Part shown: piece by piece, positions 1 through 40,266 of the stretch
Numbering within the stretch: the first letter of the stretch is position 1
How the letters are laid out: each line of letters opens with the position of its first letter
Assembly: GCA_964549075.1 (NCBI GenBank)
Contig: CAZJUB010000012.1
Coordinates: forward strand, 1 to 45,686
Source of the DNA: an uncultured archaeon
Lineage (GTDB): Archaea; Asgardarchaeota; Heimdallarchaeia; Heimdallarchaeales; Heimdallarchaeaceae
Length of the DNA: 45,686 bases
Direction of reading: 5' to 3'
The notes under the pieces: generated by a model
Databases searched by the model: none
The model's input: the letters and a program-made list of their open reading frames with translations, nothing else
Told to the model about the DNA's origin: nothing
Translations under genes and position numbers: made by a program

Positions 1-437
1 AAATAATGATATTTTAAAAGGAAATTTAGAGAAAATATACATAGTTTTTTATAGATTTTTAATGAATTTCCAACATAAAACAAATTAGAGTTTTCTTTTG
101 AAATTTTCTCGAAATATTCTCTTACTACTATTGTATCACTATTTCCATGTGTAAAGAAAATTGGTTTATTTAGCTTTGTAAGTATTTTGAAAATTTTTTT
201 TGCTGTTTTTATTTGAAAAGATGTGAACTTATCCAGGTATTTCGAGTAGACTAATTCAGTATATCTTTCTCTAGAAATTCTTTTTGTTTCAAAAATTGAT
301 TTAATGATTAAGGAGTATGAAATTGTTCCTGTGATGTCTCCAGTAATGAAAATTGTTTGACATTGTTTCAGTTTATTTTTAATTCTTTTTAGATTAAGAA
401 TACAACCATGTAAGTCTCCCAATATTGCATATTTCAC
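1..437 (-). CDS. Metallophosphoesterase (calcineurin-like), partial, runs off the left edge
   Basis: Not in the ORF track. A GTG at 437-435 overlaps the hutH TAG. Hand translation gives (M)KYAILGDLHGC...IFITGDITG...FFTHGNSD, matching the DxH, GD and GN motifs. Confidence 0.8.
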   Translation of the reverse strand, partial: MKYAILGDLHGCILNLKRIKNKLKQCQTIFITGDITGTISYSLIIKSIFETKRISRERYTELVYSKYLDKFTSFQIKTAKKIFKILTKLNKPIFFTHGNSDTIVVREYFEKISKENSNLFYVGNSLKIYKKLCIFSLNFLLKYHY

Positions 438-1975
438 TAAATATCACCAAACAATGGACCTGCTTCTGTTTCAATTAATTGAACAAGTTTTCTACTTGTA
501 ATTTGATCTCCAATCCAGTTAACTTCAATATCGAAAAATCTGTCTTCTTTCAGTGGTGGTATCTTTTGTCTAATAAAGGAATAAATCTTATTCAATCCTT
601 CAGATATAGTTCTATCTTTGTTAAATTTCAAAGCTTGGCATGCAGTATAAATCTCTACTGCTATCATTTTCGATACATTGTTTACAATTTTGTAAGCTTT
701 TTTACTTGCAGTTAATCCCATAGAAACATGATCTTCTTGATTTGCTGATACAGATGTATTATCTATAGATGCTGGTGACGCAAGAACTTTGTTTTCAGCA
801 GATATGGCTGTGTCAGCATACTGAAGGATCATCAATCCAGAGTTCAATCCAGGGTGTTCAGACAAAAATGGTGGGAGATCAGATATAGAAGCGTCAAGTA
901 GTAAATTAACTCTTCTTTCTGAAATATTACCAAGTTCAGTCATTGCTATTGCTAAATAATCCATAGTAAGACCAATGGGTTCTCCATGAAAGTTTCCACC
1001 AGAAGCAACAATAGAACAATCTAAATCAATTAGTGGATTGTCAGTTGTAGAATTAATTTCTATTTCTACTAAGTTCTTGCAGTGGATTATCGCATCTAAA
1101 ACAGCACCGTGAACTTGAGGAGAACACCTGATAGAATAGGGATCTTGAATTCTTTTTGGAGGATTTTTCATTAAATCACTTCCTTCGAGAATTTTCATGA
1201 GAGCTTTAGCAAATTCCTTCTGTCCTTGATGGGGTCTTAAATTCATTATAAAAGCTGAAAATGCTTCAATATTCCCATTAAAAGCTTCAAGCATTAAACC
1301 TACTGAGATTACTGAATTTCTCAAAACATTTAGAGCATCATACACGGTGTGAGCAGCGTAAGATGTGAGAACATGAGTTCCGTTGATTAATGATAATCCT
1401 TCTTTGGCACTTAATTCTAAAGGTGTTAGTTCTAATTGTTTAAGAATTTCAGAACCTTTGAGTATTGTATTCTTATATTTAGCTTCACCTTCACCAATGA
1501 GCATTCTAGCAATGTAAGCAAGAGGGGATAAATCACCAGACGCACCCAAAGAGCCAATACTTGGAACAAGAGGTATTACTCTATTATTAATAAGCTTCTC
1601 TAGCATTTCTACAACTTTTAAACGTATTCCACTTCCCCCTCTACAAAATGAGTTAATTTCAATTACCATGGCTCCTAATACAACCTCATCTGGAATGTGT
1701 GAACCAAAACCTATACTGTGCGACTTGATTAGATTTTTCTGAAGAACTCCTCTTTCAGCTGGAGATATAACTGTATCAGAAAGTTTACCGAATCCTGTTG
1801 ATACTCCATAAATTACTTCATTATTTGCAAGTTTCTCTTCAATAATTTTTCTAGATTTTTTAATTCTCTCTTTCCCTTCTTTACTGATTCTAATTTCTCT
1901 TCCAGAACGAGTAATATCTATTAAATCTTGGATATTCAAAGAATTACCATCTAAAACTATTGCTTTCTGGCTCAT
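437..1975 (-). CDS. hutH: Histidine ammonia-lyase (canonical type)
   Basis: YGVSTGFG loop, LIKSH, MIO-forming GASGDL, KEGLSLING, QDPYSIRC, GGNFHG, SANQEDHVSM. Confidence 0.93.
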   Translation of the reverse strand: MSQKAIVLDGNSLNIQDLIDITRSGREIRISKEGKERIKKSRKIIEEKLANNEVIYGVSTGFGKLSDTVISPAERGVLQKNLIKSHSIGFGSHIPDEVVLGAMVIEINSFCRGGSGIRLKVVEMLEKLINNRVIPLVPSIGSLGASGDLSPLAYIARMLIGEGEAKYKNTILKGSEILKQLELTPLELSAKEGLSLINGTHVLTSYAAHTVYDALNVLRNSVISVGLMLEAFNGNIEAFSAFIMNLRPHQGQKEFAKALMKILEGSDLMKNPPKRIQDPYSIRCSPQVHGAVLDAIIHCKNLVEIEINSTTDNPLIDLDCSIVASGGNFHGEPIGLTMDYLAIAMTELGNISERRVNLLLDASISDLPPFLSEHPGLNSGLMILQYADTAISAENKVLASPASIDNTSVSANQEDHVSMGLTASKKAYKIVNNVSKMIAVEIYTACQALKFNKDRTISEGLNKIYSFIRQKIPPLKEDRFFDIEVNWIGDQITSRKLVQLIETEAGPLFGDI

Positions 1976-2029
1976 GACTCTCTGATTCTTTTTGATTCTT
2001 ACTTATTTATCCATTATGATTTTTGTTAA

Positions 2030-2185
2030 TTGATAGATAAAGGTCAGTACAACATCGCACCTTGTAAGACCTGCGTTCAACAGGTTACTACTCATGAGAA
2101 TGCTGCTTTAAATATTGCTTCCCTCCAAGATAGTCCTCTTCCTTCTAATCCTTTCCCCTCAACGCACGTGAGGGGACAACCTTAA
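2030..2185 (+). pseudogene. tnpB: TnpB/Cas12f-like C-terminal remnant (IS200/IS605 family)
   Basis: Hand translation ...IAPCKTCVQQVTTHENAALNIASLQDSPLPSNPFPSTHVRGQP* shows CxxC followed by NAAxNIA, the TnpB Zn-finger/RuvC-III tail. There is an in-frame stop at 2027-2029 and no upstream coding sequence. Confidence 0.65.
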
Positions 2186-2235
2186 ACGACAGCTAAATTC
2201 CTTCTTGCAAGTTTAGCTAAGTTTCATAACGTGCA
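2154..2235 (+). ncRNA. Putative omegaRNA (reRNA) scaffold / IS605 right end
   Basis: Hairpin TCCCCTCA(2154-2161)/TGAGGGGA(2169-2176). Hairpin AGCTAAA(2191-2197)/TTTAGCT(2212-2218). Loop GCACG(2164-2168) is complementary to CGTGC(2230-2234), a possible pseudoknot. The structure overlaps the 3' end of the tnpB remnant. Confidence 0.5.
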
Positions 2236-2295
2236 TGGACAAATATTTTAAACATAATAATGAAAGGATTATAAAAATAGATGTGAGATTAAAAA

Positions 2296-3819
2296 ATGAC
2301 ATATGTTATTACAGGTAAAGGATTAACAATTGAGGATGTAGTAAGAGTTGCCCGTTATAACGAAAAGGTAGAAATCCATCCTGATGCTATGGAAAAAATG
2401 AGAAAATGCAGAGAAATGCTCGAAGAGAAGATTGAAGCAAAGGAAACTATGTACGGAATTACCACAGGTATCGGTGAATTTTCTGAAGTCGTTTTAACAG
2501 ATGAGGAAGTTTTACAATTCCAGAAGTATCTAATTTATAATCATGCAGCTGGGATAGGAGAAGCTGCACCTTTAGAACATGTTAGAGCTGCAATGCTTGG
2601 ACGTGTAAATGTACTAGCTAACGGATATTCAGGAAATAGACCTATAATTGCTGAAACTTATGTTGAAATGCTAAATAAAGGTGTAACCCCTGAAGTTTGT
2701 CGTAAAGGTTCAGTAGGTGCTTCTGGTGATTTAGCTCCTATGTCTCAACTCGCTCTTTTGTTAATGGGTGAAGGTCGAGCGTTTTACAAAGGTGAGCTTT
2801 TACCTGGTAAAGAAGCAATGGAGAAAGCTGGTATTAAAATTCCAGGATTAAAAGCAAGAGATGGTTTAGCTGCAATCAATGGGTCTAATCTTCTTACAGC
2901 AATGAGTGCTATTTTCTTATATGATGCTGAGCGTTTCATGAAACATGCAGAAATTGCATGTGCGATGACAATTGAAGCTTTAATGGGAAATATGAAACCT
3001 TATACTCCTAAACTCCATGAAATCAGAGGTTTTCCTGGAGCTGTAAGATGTGCTAAAGCTCTCTCCAAACTTTTCAAAGGAGGAGATCTTTATGAAGGCA
3101 AGCTAAAAGTAAAGGTTCAAGATGCCTATTCAATGCGTTCTGCTCCACAAGTATTAGGTGCTGCACATGACACCTTGGCTTGGGCTCGTTCTCAAGTTGA
3201 GATAGAATTAAATGGTGTTGGAGATAATCCTGTCTTCTTTACAGATGAAAAGCTGACATTAACTGGCGCTAATTTTCAAGGAACTCCTGTTTCTTTGCCT
3301 ATGGACATAGCTGGTGCCGCTATCACTATGGTCTGTGTTATGTCTGAAAGAAGAATGAATAGACTGAATCATCCAGCATTAAGTGTTGGATTACCCCCAT
3401 TCTTATCTAAACATGCTGGATTAATGTCTGGATTAATGCTAAGTCAGTATACTGCTGATATGCAAATAGTAGAAATGAGAATTCTATCAATGCCTGCAAG
3501 TATTCAATCTATACCCGCAGCTGCTGATCAAGAAGACTTTGTTTCTATGGGGATGAATACAGCACTTAAGAATTTCCAAATTCTTGACAATGCCTATGGT
3601 GTTTTGGGTATCGAATTTATGGCAGCTGCTCAAGCTTTAGATTACAGGGAATTCAAATTTGGTGATGGTGTAACTAAAGCAAAAGAAGTAATTCGAAGAC
3701 ATGTTGAATTCTTAGATATAGATAGGCCCTTATTTGATGATCATAATGCCATGAAAGCTTTAGTCAAGTCTTGTGAGATTCTAGAAGAAGTCGAAAAAGA
3801 AATTGGAAGTTTAAATTAA
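2296..3819 (+). CDS. hutH: Histidine ammonia-lyase family (MIO) aromatic amino acid lyase, second paralog
   Basis: YGITTGIG, LIYNHAAG, GASGDL, QDAYSMRS, GANFQG, AADQEDFVSMG. Lies directly upstream of hutI. Confidence 0.85.
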   Translation: MTYVITGKGLTIEDVVRVARYNEKVEIHPDAMEKMRKCREMLEEKIEAKETMYGITTGIGEFSEVVLTDEEVLQFQKYLIYNHAAGIGEAAPLEHVRAAMLGRVNVLANGYSGNRPIIAETYVEMLNKGVTPEVCRKGSVGASGDLAPMSQLALLLMGEGRAFYKGELLPGKEAMEKAGIKIPGLKARDGLAAINGSNLLTAMSAIFLYDAERFMKHAEIACAMTIEALMGNMKPYTPKLHEIRGFPGAVRCAKALSKLFKGGDLYEGKLKVKVQDAYSMRSAPQVLGAAHDTLAWARSQVEIELNGVGDNPVFFTDEKLTLTGANFQGTPVSLPMDIAGAAITMVCVMSERRMNRLNHPALSVGLPPFLSKHAGLMSGLMLSQYTADMQIVEMRILSMPASIQSIPAAADQEDFVSMGMNTALKNFQILDNAYGVLGIEFMAAAQALDYREFKFGDGVTKAKEVIRRHVEFLDIDRPLFDDHNAMKALVKSCEILEEVEKEIGSLN

Positions 3820-9680: not shown

Positions 9681-9855
9681 TTATTTTCTACTCACCAACT
9701 GAGTTAATAATTTCTAAAATAAATAATACACCTCTTTCTACATATTTCTTTTGGTTAATGTTGAGTAATATCATTGTTCATCTATTTTATTTCAACTCGA
9801 CTTTAAGAAAATCTTTTTATCATTCAACATTAAATATTCTTTACTGGGGTTATTC

Positions 9856-11430
9856 ATGTCTGAAGAAGAAACTTTCCAAGATACAGAAAGAATGCGATTA
9901 TTATTCTTCACTAGTCCTGACTGTTTTGCGTGTCCAGAAGTTGAGAGAGTAATTGAGAACATCGCTGGTACTTCTATGAAAGGCATACTTCATATTAGCA
10001 CTATTGATATCTCGGAAAATCAGGAGATTGCAGCACAATATGGGATTTTGAGTGTACCTGTAATAATGATGAATGATGAAAGGATAGCTGAAGGACTTAT
10101 CACTGAAGATGTTATACGTGAAAAACTTTGGTCACAAATTCTTCCTAATATTATTGAACGTGAGAGAGATACTCGACGAACTGAGAGTATGATGATTCTT
10201 ACTAAAAATACCATTAGTAGTATCATTTCTCAAGAATTAGTTCGTAAAAATCTTGGTGATTATGTTCATATTAGTGTTTATCAGCAAGTAATGATGTCAC
10301 TCTTACAACTAGATCCTTTGATACCTCAGCTTCTCTATCAAAATGGAAGAGAATTAGGTATTTTTGGTGCTGCGCCTTACTATCTTACTGTTCTTAACCC
10401 CAAAGTAGGTGCAGTTAAACCAGAAGAAAGATTCCAAGAAACATTAGTTGCACTAGCTCTGCTCTACAGTCATAATAACACTGTTCCACTCTATTATGCT
10501 ACACAATGTGATGTTGCACAAATGGATGGATATACTGCCACACTCCGAATATATGAATTAGCAAATAGTGCAGGAGCTATCAATATAGGAGAAACTCTTT
10601 GTCATTTTACAGCTGGTGAGATTGCTGGAACAATTGAAGCAATGATTGGTTCTGCAACAAGTGTTAAAGAAACTAAATGTAAAGGATTAGGTGATCCTTA
10701 TTGTGAATTTGAAATTGAAGTTTTTATAGGAAAAGAACCAGGGAAAGCTCCATATAGGGTTTATGAAACAAAGTTAGAAGATAGGCAAGTACAATTTCTG
10801 GGTGATTTTCCTCCTGAAGATCATCGTAGACAATTATTTTATGAGTTCATCCATGAAACTACTTTGCATGGTTATAATTCTCTGAAAATGACAGAAGCTT
10901 TACGACCAAATGATGTAGACTATGTACATATTAGTGCTCTACAACAGCAGATTATCTCTTTAAAATTCAAAGACAAATTCTGTGGAGCGTTATTATACTC
11001 TGCAGGAAGAGAGCTAGGAGTTATTGGTCCAGGTAAAGAGTTAATTTATGCTCTTTTAGCTAAAGAACAAGCAGAATTACCTATAACATCTTTAAAACAA
11101 GCTACTCGTATAATGAAGGAATATTATACACATCCAACAACATATCTGTCAAGAGGACATTCCTTTGTAGAGATTTTCGATGGGGAAGATGAGGATGAAA
11201 TGTTCCTTAGAATTTACGAATGTGCTTATGCTTCTGGAGCTAACTTTTCAGCTGAAACAGGTATGAATGAGACTCTATGTGATTTCCAAGCAGGATTTAT
11301 AGCAGGTCGATTAGCACTCATTCTAAAGGACCCACCAATTGTAACAGAAGTAAAATGTCATGGAACAGGACATAATTTTTGTGAATTTAGAATAGAAAAA
11401 GGATATTCATTTGAAGAGGAAGGCCATTGA
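9856..11430 (+). CDS. Thioredoxin-domain protein fused to two tandem V4R domains
   Basis: FFTSPDCFACP...YGILSVP thioredoxin fold. Two repeats of DYVHIS..QQ...LLY..GRELG...LC.F.AG.IAG...E.KC.G.G...CEF. Confidence 0.85.
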   Translation: MSEEETFQDTERMRLLFFTSPDCFACPEVERVIENIAGTSMKGILHISTIDISENQEIAAQYGILSVPVIMMNDERIAEGLITEDVIREKLWSQILPNIIERERDTRRTESMMILTKNTISSIISQELVRKNLGDYVHISVYQQVMMSLLQLDPLIPQLLYQNGRELGIFGAAPYYLTVLNPKVGAVKPEERFQETLVALALLYSHNNTVPLYYATQCDVAQMDGYTATLRIYELANSAGAINIGETLCHFTAGEIAGTIEAMIGSATSVKETKCKGLGDPYCEFEIEVFIGKEPGKAPYRVYETKLEDRQVQFLGDFPPEDHRRQLFYEFIHETTLHGYNSLKMTEALRPNDVDYVHISALQQQIISLKFKDKFCGALLYSAGRELGVIGPGKELIYALLAKEQAELPITSLKQATRIMKEYYTHPTTYLSRGHSFVEIFDGEDEDEMFLRIYECAYASGANFSAETGMNETLCDFQAGFIAGRLALILKDPPIVTEVKCHGTGHNFCEFRIEKGYSFEEEGH

Positions 11431-38979: not shown

Positions 38980-40266
38980 ATGCTAGAGCTTGATAGATAT
39001 AAAACACCTTTAAATGAGGTGTTCTCTGAACAAAAGAAATTTGAATTACAGTTATTGGTAGAAAAAGAACTGGCTGATGCAAATTTTAAATTAGGAAAAA
39101 TACCTGAGGAAGCAAATAAAGTAATTCAAGAAAGATGTAATCCAAAATATGTAAAACTAACAAGAGTGAAGGAAATAGAAAAAGATGTTCATCATGATGT
39201 AATGAGTCTAGTTTATGCAATAGCTGAACAATGTGGAGATTATGGTGGTTATGTACATCTTGGTGCTACTTCCTATGATATCCAAGATACAGTGCGAGGT
39301 ATACAACTTACAACTGCAAAACAACAAATTCTTGAAGATTTACAAAAAACAATTGAAATTACCAAAGAATTAACATTAAAACATAAAAATCTGGCGTGTA
39401 TAGGTAGAACTCATGGTATTCACGCAATTCCCACAACTTATGGTATGAAATTTGGTAACTTTCTTAATGAATTAATTATTGCGAAAAAAGCTCTTGAAGA
39501 TGCTATCATTAATTTCGGAAAAATCTCAGGAGCAGTTGGAACATATGCTTCTTATGGTACCCAAGAAATAGAGGATATTGTTTTAAGTAAATTTAACCTG
39601 AAAAGACAACCTATAACAACTCAAGTAATCTCACGAGTTGTTCATGCAAAATTTATTCAATCGTTAGCTTTGATAGTTTCAGTTTTAGAGCATTTTGCAA
39701 AAGAGATAAGGAATCTTCAGAGAACTGAAATAGATGAAATAAGAGAATCTTTTGAGGGAAAACAAGTAGGGTCTTCCACTATGGCTCAAAAACGAAATCC
39801 CGAAAAAAGTGAACGAGTTTGTGGTATAGCGAGAGTAGTTAGAAGCTATTTACAACCTGCCATGGAAAATATCTGCTTAGAGCATGAAAGAGATCTCTCG
39901 AATTCTAGTACTGAACGTATAATCTTCTCTCAAACCTGTATTCTTACTCACTATGTAACTATACAGATGAATCAAATATTGTCATCTTTAAAATTAAATA
40001 AAGATAAGATTCAGTACAATTTGTATTTTAGAAAAGGAGCACAATGTGCTGAAAATCTTATGTTAAAATTATCTGATAAAATAGGTAGACAAAAAGCTCA
40101 CGAACTACTCAAAAACTTATCAAATGAAGATAATTTCACAGAAGCAGTCAAAAACAATGAAATCATAAATAATTACTTCGATAAAGAAGAAATTGATAAA
40201 ATACTTGATCCACTAAATTATCTTGGTTTATCACAAGATATTGTTGAAAAATTGCTGGATCTTTAG
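38980..40266 (+). CDS. purB: Adenylosuccinate lyase
   Basis: HHDV, HLGATSYD, GRTHG, SGAVG, GSSTMAQKRNP, EHERDLSNS. Confidence 0.95.
   Translation: MLELDRYKTPLNEVFSEQKKFELQLLVEKELADANFKLGKIPEEANKVIQERCNPKYVKLTRVKEIEKDVHHDVMSLVYAIAEQCGDYGGYVHLGATSYDIQDTVRGIQLTTAKQQILEDLQKTIEITKELTLKHKNLACIGRTHGIHAIPTTYGMKFGNFLNELIIAKKALEDAIINFGKISGAVGTYASYGTQEIEDIVLSKFNLKRQPITTQVISRVVHAKFIQSLALIVSVLEHFAKEIRNLQRTEIDEIRESFEGKQVGSSTMAQKRNPEKSERVCGIARVVRSYLQPAMENICLEHERDLSNSSTERIIFSQTCILTHYVTIQMNQILSSLKLNKDKIQYNLYFRKGAQCAENLMLKLSDKIGRQKAHELLKNLSNEDNFTEAVKNNEIINNYFDKEEIDKILDPLNYLGLSQDIVEKLLDL

Follow-up and report, generated by a model that had tools for sequence, protein, structure and literature searches.

Between two divergently transcribed ammonia-lyase genes of an uncultured member of the Heimdallarchaeaceae lies what is very probably the right-hand stump of an IS607-family insertion sequence, surviving as an inert and fairly young relic at about positions 2036 to 2236 (forward strand) of the 45,686 nucleotides analyzed here (the window). 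Missing from the stump are the element's left end and promoter, the tnpA gene, and about 90% of tnpB; it retains the very 3' end of tnpB together with the right end of the element (Table 1). An open reading frame of 51 codons on the forward strand, from 2030 to 2185, reads LIDKGQYNIAPCKTCVQQVTTHENAALNIASLQDSPLPSNPFPSTHVRGQP up to its stop codon and ends in ...APCKTCVQQVTTHENAALNIAS...FPSTHVRGQP; the tnpB remnant within it retains the CxxC and THxNAAxNI motifs. The truncation point is at about 2030 to 2036, and homology to intact copies begins at about 2036, at about GATAAAGG.

The initial annotation of this DNA had described the 320-nt gap, the reading frame, two hairpins (8 bp at 2154 to 2176, and a second at 2191 to 2218), and a complementarity between the loop sequence GCACG (2164 to 2168) and CGTGC (2230 to 2234). 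All of these features are present, and the complementarity extends further, to A2162-T2236. The peptide had been read as the orphaned 3' tail of a tnpB gene, in agreement with its 63% identity (E value, 1.8e-13) to the C terminus of an intact TnpB-like protein, residues 485 to 533, encoded on contig C108 of the same genome.

Table 1. Coordinates of the stump, its RNA module, and the flanking features in the window
Feature	Position	Strand	Evidence
hutH (histidine ammonia-lyase), left neighbor	437..1975	-	NCBIfam TIGR01225, 596.6 bits (cutoff, 539.15)
Native intergenic DNA with genus-conserved hutH promoter motif TATTTATCCATTATG (about 2005 to 2019)	1976..2035	.	19 orthologous gaps compared
tnpB 3' remnant, last 49 codons and TAA stop (2183 to 2185)	2036..2185	+	63% amino acid identity to C108 residues 485 to 533
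Right-end module, 3' part of reRNA/omega-RNA scaffold and IS right end	2150..2236	+	Covariance model R1, 102.2 bits; alignment A2
Hairpin 1, 8 bp, 7-nt loop at 2162 to 2168	2154..2176	+	98.5% of cells paired
Pseudoknot 5' strand (hairpin 1 loop)	2162..2168	+	Pairs with 2230 to 2236
Closing helix around hairpin 2, AAAC (2184 to 2187) with GTTT (2221 to 2224)	2184..2224	+	Aligned copies
Hairpin 2, 7 bp, 2191 to 2197 with 2212 to 2218	2191..2218	+	Compensatory changes
Pseudoknot 3' strand, last bases of the element (CGTGCAT)	2230..2236	+	Aligned copies
Would-be guide, native hutH2 promoter DNA (GGACAAATATTTTAAAC...)	2237..2256	+	Empty sites of 19 relatives
hutH-like ammonia-lyase paralogue (hutH2), right neighbor	2296..3819	+	NF006871, 531.7 bits (cutoff, 524)

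Genomic setting of the stump

The gap between the divergent hutH open reading frames extends from 1976 to 2295. The products of the two flanking genes are 36% identical to each other, and that of the right neighbor scores under the cutoff of the hutH equivalog model (502.8 bits versus 539.15). The same product also matches the model for tyrosine 2,3-aminomutase, at 369.5 bits and under the cutoff of 501 for that model; judging from these profile scores, the gene may encode a different aromatic amino acid ammonia-lyase or mutase instead of a second histidine ammonia-lyase. hutH was present in all 25 of the genomes of the genus that were examined, where the divergent hutH/hutH arrangement is a conserved feature and loci with the pair are frequent.

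The orthologous gaps extracted from relatives (n = 19) measure about 140 to 190 nt and keep two motifs, one close to hutH, TATTTATCCATTATG, and one on the upstream side of hutH2, (T)TGGACAAATATTTTAAAC. The second of these, found at 2237 to 2253 in the window and in the gaps of relatives L064 to L084, is conserved across the genus at about 45 to 60 nt ahead of the hutH2 start, where it probably serves the second ammonia-lyase gene as a promoter or as a site for a regulator. On the other side of the stump, the stretch from 1976 to 2035 is about 20 to 26 nt shorter than its counterpart in the two closest relatives, with 17 nt of native spacer after the hutH motif versus 43 and 37 nt in those two genomes. 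Inspection of the window sequence and comparison of the orthologous gaps revealed no left end or element promoter in 1976 to 2035, and no TATA-type promoter like that of the mini-elements described below or that of the C108 copy stands ahead of the stump.

Independent metagenome contigs cross both stump junctions unchanged, including one contig of 569 nt (run X9) that covers 1884 to 2452 with 0 differences, and the stump is thus not a product of misassembly. In the four DNA runs examined, the contigs show no alternative allele and no joints at the locus. A covariance model search of the orthologous hutH loci of relatives found the right-end module in 0 of 24, and by this comparison the stump is specific to this species.

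Full-length relatives and assignment to the IS607 family

Within the same genome, the gap sequence matched a stretch of contig C108 at 81% identity and, in addition, the edge of contig C197. The C108 stretch is the 3' end of a long open reading frame that ends in ...APCSKCGQQVNTHENATFNIAS...FPSTHVRGPP and encodes 647 amino acids from its true start, and the right-end module that accompanies it is identical to that of the window at 75 of 87 positions. When 60 relatives were searched with a 246-nt query, matches came from 23 of the 30 genomes belonging to the family (21 of the 24 that represent the genus) and from none of the 30 other genomes, with more than 100 related copies in the genomes concerned. 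Nearly all DNA matches end at query positions 204 to 208, which correspond to 2233 to 2237 of the window. The full tnpB copies and the right-end boundary that the initial annotation had proposed to look for were both recovered in this way. Among the 29 loci with long matches, 22 carry an open reading frame of at least 511 amino acids that reaches the locus edge and has this tail, 1 is cut by the locus end, and 6 are interrupted.

The full element is laid out as left end, serine-recombinase tnpA, tnpB of about 620 to 650 amino acids, and right end; the copies with tnpA sequence are about 2.73 kb long, and AC(C/T)GT stands directly before their left end. In the full copies that were extended (n = 16), an upstream open reading frame of about 200 amino acids with the start MLVRIGI...GVS.ST.RRWEKE was found in 3 (L135, L136, and L141), and fragments of it were found in 2 more. 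Its product contains a MerR-type helix-turn-helix domain (PF00376; E value, 9e-12) and a resolvase domain (PF00239; E value, 1.4e-21), and this serine recombinase places the full copies in the IS607 family. The initial annotation had assigned the tail to IS200/IS605, which has to be corrected on account of the serine recombinase; in addition, a search for the Y1 transposase (PF01797) gave no match in the genome, which is 89.7% complete, with controls positive in 6 of 14 genomes.

In the IS607 copies examined, the left flank closes with AC(C/T)GT and the right end with G(C/T)(G/A)T. The last bases of the element are CAT in the window and at loci L035, L040, L058, and L097 and CGT in most copies. 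An intact tnpA of the IS607 family was not found in the genome, only N-terminal fragments. Two near-identical left-end stumps, on contigs C94 (about 9700 to 9990) and C3 (about 39790 to 40100) (L152 and L153), consist of ACCGT, the left end, and the first 60 to 80 codons of tnpA followed by unrelated sequence, the mirror image of the stump in the window. Together with the lack of an intact tnpA, these stumps indicate that the IS family is decaying in this genome.

TnpB-like protein of the full copies

The C108 protein matches the C-terminal zinc finger/TNB family of Pfam (PF07282) at 27.4 bits, above the cutoff of 26.3, and a homologue from genome G013 falls just under it at 24.1 bits; the 51-amino-acid stump peptide alone had no Pfam match. 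The guided_TnpB model (NF040570) aligns with residues 284 to 513 of the C108 protein with an E value of 5.6e-9 and 35.8 bits versus a cutoff of 100. When a profile of 18 TnpB-like proteins was compared with the PDB, all 12 of the 12 matches were chains of the TnpB/Cas12f/TranC type (best E value, 1.1e-7). D435 and E534 are invariant, and the RuvC-III position is a histidine (H619) in 18 of 18 proteins, within the motif NTHxNAAxNI. This histidine aligns with the aspartate of NADxNAAxNI in the TnpB/Cas12f chains of the PDB, and the set is D-E-H in place of the canonical D-E-D catalytic triad. The account of the RIIIr-4 TnpB clades, whose RuvC-III site is rearranged, given by Altae-Tran et al. 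(2023; PMC10691335) includes the same RuvC-III Asp-to-His replacement in an otherwise conserved ...NTHxNAAxNI; the proteins found here resemble those clades in this motif and differ in retaining CxxC and an HxxC-like pair. AlphaFold2, given 18 aligned rows, modeled the C108 TnpB with low confidence (mean pLDDT, 54.3; pTM, 0.37), with values of less than 50 in the RuvC region.

A conserved RNA module at the right end

The fold of the right end was evaluated over the last 87 nt of 66 copies (60 distinct), the window row included, whose rows represent related genomes and are not independent events. Across these copies, 97.7% of cells in the structure of Table 1 are paired, and 9 pairs show double changes. 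None of 500 column shuffles reached any of the observed pairing or covariation measures, and controls in which the partners were slid by 1 to 3 columns were 22 to 41% paired. Covariation in the stems and the pseudoknot, which the initial annotation had put forward as a check, is seen as compensatory changes in 5 of the 7 pseudoknot pairs, with loop/end combinations such as ACACACG/CGTGTGT, ACGTACG/CGTACGT, ACGCTCG/CGAGCGT, and ATGCACG/CGTGCAT, and in 4 of the 7 pairs of hairpin 2. The stem of hairpin 1 is near-invariant, with 5 of 8 pairs never varying and compensatory changes in none, and is therefore uninformative for covariation. At one stem position G-U is the commonest pair (34 G-U versus 23 A-U), and G-U pairs also occur at five others, a pattern that an RNA of the tnpB sense strand would fit better than DNA. 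The family alignment thereby documents the reRNA pseudoknot in a large archaeal lineage of D-E-H TnpB proteins through strong covariation among natural sequences.

The window copy retains all of the pairs of hairpin 1 (8/8), the closing helix (4/4), and hairpin 2 (7/7) and 6 of the 7 pseudoknot pairs, the single mismatch being C2163/A2235. With this one exception, the earlier suggestion that the scaffold is still foldable, including the pseudoknot that adjoins the flank, is borne out by the comparison with the other copies. The covariance model score of the window copy lies close to that of C108 (104.8 bits) and among those of 16 full elements (92.5 to 112.3 bits), all of them training rows, window included, that match by construction. 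In a TnpB paralogue on contig C136, the complementarity of loop and end is kept with other letters (CGCATAC/GTATGCG).

The coding sequence bears on the same question. In codons for conserved residues, the entropy of the third position is about 1.0 bit over most of tnpB but only 0.21 bits over the final 20 or so codons, and the stop codon falls at three positions (in 10, 10, and 2 of 22 copies) within nucleotides that stay conserved. The drop in entropy and the shifting stop indicate that the constraint at about 2130 to 2236 acts on the nucleic acid and not on the protein. Folded as a single sequence, the 201-nt stump has an unremarkable energy (z = -1.27; 26 of 200 shuffles fold equally well), so the case for the module is built on comparison with other copies. 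Homology and covariation together argue that the features seen in the window are not due to chance. A search of Rfam over 1900 to 2400 returned only noise (best E value, 1.5), and the coding part at 2036 to 2130 yielded no conserved structure that was convincing. RNAalifold, applied to a 207-nt tnpB-linked alignment, paired the element end with the AATGCTGC (NAA) codons instead, and this pairing was rejected, having 0 double changes versus compensatory changes in 5 of 7 pairs for the pseudoknot with the loop.

The arrangement resembles that of ISXfa1, an IS607 element of Xylella fastidiosa, in the description given by Yoon et al. (2023; PMC10711439). The reRNA of ISXfa1 is about 150 nt long and runs beyond the element boundary, and a pseudoknot in which the apical loop of stem-loop 1 pairs with bases beside the guide is required. 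The RNA proposed here would likewise come from the tnpB 3' end and the right end, take its guide from the right flank, and combine stem-loops with an apical-loop pseudoknot next to the guide, and, as in ISXfa1, a serine recombinase would move the element, possibly at a short matching motif. In comparison with that description, the host here is an archaeon, the element ends in CGT or CAT and not in GG, the pseudoknot comprises 7 bp, and the window copy is just a stump, from which tnpA, the left end, the promoter, and the nuclease are missing.

The element end and the would-be guide

The element ends at 2236, where ...AACGTGCAT is followed by GGACAAATATTTTAAAC. The conserved hutH2 motif begins directly at this point, and it follows that the element stops at 2236 and that the DNA from 2237 onward is native promoter. 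The initial annotation had placed the source of a guide in the hutH2 upstream region, and the boundary agrees with this, the native sequence from 2237 being visible in the empty sites of 19 relatives. In the closest relative, ...ACGT stands before TGGAC at the empty site, which is compatible with a CGT-type target. The locus serves as a worked example in which the empty sites of relatives fix the boundary between element and guide to a single base.

A 17-mer of the would-be guide is unique in the genome, its sole perfect match being the flank of the stump itself, and the next best matches have 2 to 3 mismatches. There are 26 sites in the genome with 3 or fewer mismatches to this 17-mer, none of which has the left-flank motif in front of it. 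AT-rich sequence of the pattern TGAG.AAATAT.TTTAAA borders four independent copies on the right (window 2237 to 2253; C197:55-75 [L003]; L098; and L120), and this similarity accounts for some BLAST matches that extend beyond the element end. A longer element and a common promoter motif were each considered as the source of the likeness and set aside, as the 17-mer is unique and the empty sites show native sequence. The likeness may instead stem from chance, from a preference for certain targets, or from insertion close to promoters.

Protein-less mini-elements in the genus

Short matches were found at 40 loci, of which 26 had enough flank to judge; 24 of these 26 lack tnpB. Mini-elements are either about 400 nt (13 loci, one of them cut by a contig end; examples are L097 and L119) or about 335 nt long (9 loci, one of them cut; L123 and L114), and bare modules like that of the window occur at two loci (L094 and L098). 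The mini-elements share with the full IS only about 45 nt of left end and a right-end module of 82 to 92 nt. Their middle part contains a conserved TTTATATA box and about 200 nt of structured sequence unrelated to tnpB, and on these features they look like dedicated guide RNA genes. The module is present in every mobile form, whether full, tnpB only, or mini.

Protein-less PATE-like elements are described as carrying omega-RNAs for use in trans in a preprint by Meers et al. (2023; PMC10055086). Both the stump and the mini-elements of the genus, which have the same module of 82 to 87 nt, are like PATEs in presenting a scaffold with no nuclease gene in cis. In contrast to the stump, PATEs as described in that preprint and mini-elements retain both transposon ends, and the mini-elements also have a TATA promoter; with its right end only, the stump is neither mobile nor visibly promoted. 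As mini-elements that carry the module without tnpB are common in the genus, use of such RNAs in trans is plausible here.

The loop of hairpin 2 (2200 to 2211 in the window) reads CTTCTGGCAAG, or CTTCTTGCAAG in the window, and contains the motif CTTCT(G/T)GCAAG. This motif is an inverted copy of CTTGCCAGAAG, which lies about 30 nt inside the left end of both mini-elements and full copies. With up to 2 mismatches, the 11-nt left-end inverted motif was found in 14 of 20 mini-elements with a left part, and the right-end copy was found in 21 of 22. The loop motif, which lies within the RNA scaffold, is a candidate site for binding of the MerR-HTH recombinase.

Origin and fate of the stump

The comparisons suggest a simple history. 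An IS607 element of about 2.7 kb entered the space between the divergent promoters of the two hutH genes, probably at a CGT-like site, and a later deletion would have taken away about 2.5 kb of it (the left end and promoter, tnpA, and about 90% of tnpB), along with about 20 to 26 nt of native spacer. The last 49 codons and the complete right end would have been left behind, the latter encoding the 3' part of a TnpB guide RNA with hairpin 1, the closing helix with hairpin 2, and the 7-bp pseudoknot directly before a flank-derived guide. The relic may persist because further deletion would hit the hutH promoters.

Of all modules compared, that of the window has diverged furthest in primary sequence, with a median identity of 80% to the other copies versus 89% among those copies, and the stump carries Gly-to-Val and Asn-to-Thr substitutions at nearly invariant codons. 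The codon-position substitution ratio is 0.81 in the stump and 0.81 in intact genes, with second-position changes mildly elevated (5.5 versus 3.9). Because this pattern is the same as that of intact genes, most of the divergence is older than the truncation. The 51-codon frame also remains open, and an open frame with an equal codon-position ratio does not separate a young relic from a maintained RNA. There is no detectable selection on the window copy; the RNA module has not yet decayed, and the deletion was most likely fairly recent. Taken together, the missing left end and promoter, the absence from the 24 orthologous loci, and the high divergence of the module make plain decay more likely than a function in trans. 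As a relic, the stump matters little, marking one past IS607 insertion and a partial deletion in a promoter region, which is ordinary.

Given read-through transcription, RNA from the stump could load onto the intact C108 TnpB, and a role as a trans guide for this protein is possible. The corresponding alternative to a plain relic is a functional orphan guide RNA, in which the stump is transcribed, its scaffold binds the C108 TnpB, and the guide from 2237 targets an uninterrupted allele of the hutH2 upstream region; the effect could be homing or retention against alleles without the insert, or binding at the hutH2 promoter. The fold is intact, with a covariance model score in the range of full elements (the window row being part of the model), the same genome encodes an intact TnpB with conserved D435, E534, and H619 and a closely similar right-end module, tnpB-less elements with the module are widespread in the genus, and trans use of omega-RNAs from protein-less elements is accepted in the literature, as represented by the PATE preprint (PMC10055086). 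We nevertheless consider this alternative unlikely. Neither a promoter of the mini-element type (TTTATATA, about 200 nt upstream of the module) nor one of the C108 type precedes the stump, which is also missing from every orthologous locus searched; its module is the most diverged and has a mismatch in the pseudoknot; its sole perfect target lies in its own flank, where the element end and not AC(C/T)GT comes before it; and this IS is in general decay in the genome.

A still more specific form of the orphan guide would be a natural single-guide system whose spacer is the conserved hutH2 promoter core, with transcription arising, for example, from divergent initiation at the hutH promoter (about 2005 to 2019) and the RNA loaded on the C108 TnpB. 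We regard it as highly improbable. If true, such a system could eliminate or convert alleles without the insert, whether incoming or sister, and would amount to a drive in favor of this hut allele; should the D-E-H enzyme bind but not cut, TldR-like modulation of hutH2 transcription could follow. TldRs are TnpB-derived RNA-guided transcription factors that are nuclease dead and have dedicated guides and distant targets. The stump is similar to them in that a TnpB-type guide would match promoter DNA and unlike them in that the only match is the trivial one to its own flank. Should the stump RNA be expressed and used, it would be a guide RNA that has outlived its nuclease gene and is aimed at a host promoter.

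A further alternative to the relic with a foldable RNA scaffold takes the hairpins as DNA signals for the serine recombinase, forming a recombination site in which the complementarity of loop and end serves synapsis or the choice of cleavage site, with no RNA scaffold involved. The recurrence of the 11-nt motif of the hairpin 2 loop in inverted form near the left end, and the retention of the module in full, tnpB-only, and mini forms, would be expected of such a site. Serine recombinases work on double-stranded DNA and do not need hairpins, however, and the G-U pairs are strand specific and fit RNA. The C136 paralogue keeps its loop/end complementarity with different letters, and a pseudoknot between a loop and the 3' end beside the guide is a known and experimentally required part of the IS607 reRNA of ISXfa1 in the published description (PMC10711439). 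A DNA signal in place of an RNA scaffold is thus rather improbable, although the two roles can coexist in the same hairpins. Least probable of all is that the stump, any RNA aside, has been co-opted to serve the hut locus in cis, for example as a spacer or insulator that separates the divergent promoters. The end points of the deletion do spare both genus-conserved motifs, TATTTATCCATTATG on the left and GGACAAATATTTTAAAC on the right, but all 19 relatives examined manage with a gap of about 140 to 190 nt and no stump, and purifying selection on hutH expression would by itself be expected to spare the promoters just as well.

Additional observations

The TnpB paralogue on contig C136 (3158 to 4669; L032, 1147 to 3075 and about 80 nt downstream) is 45% identical and has its own right end with an analogous hairpin. 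ARAGORN called no tRNA next to this paralogue, and sequence resembling the 3' end of a tRNA lies on both sides. Within tnpB itself, synonymous-site entropy shows a second dip in the middle of the gene, to 0.44 bits versus about 1.0 (alignment A4, columns 281 to 320; about residues 275 to 315 of the C108 protein), which hints at an internal element acting at the nucleic acid level, such as a promoter or an RNA.
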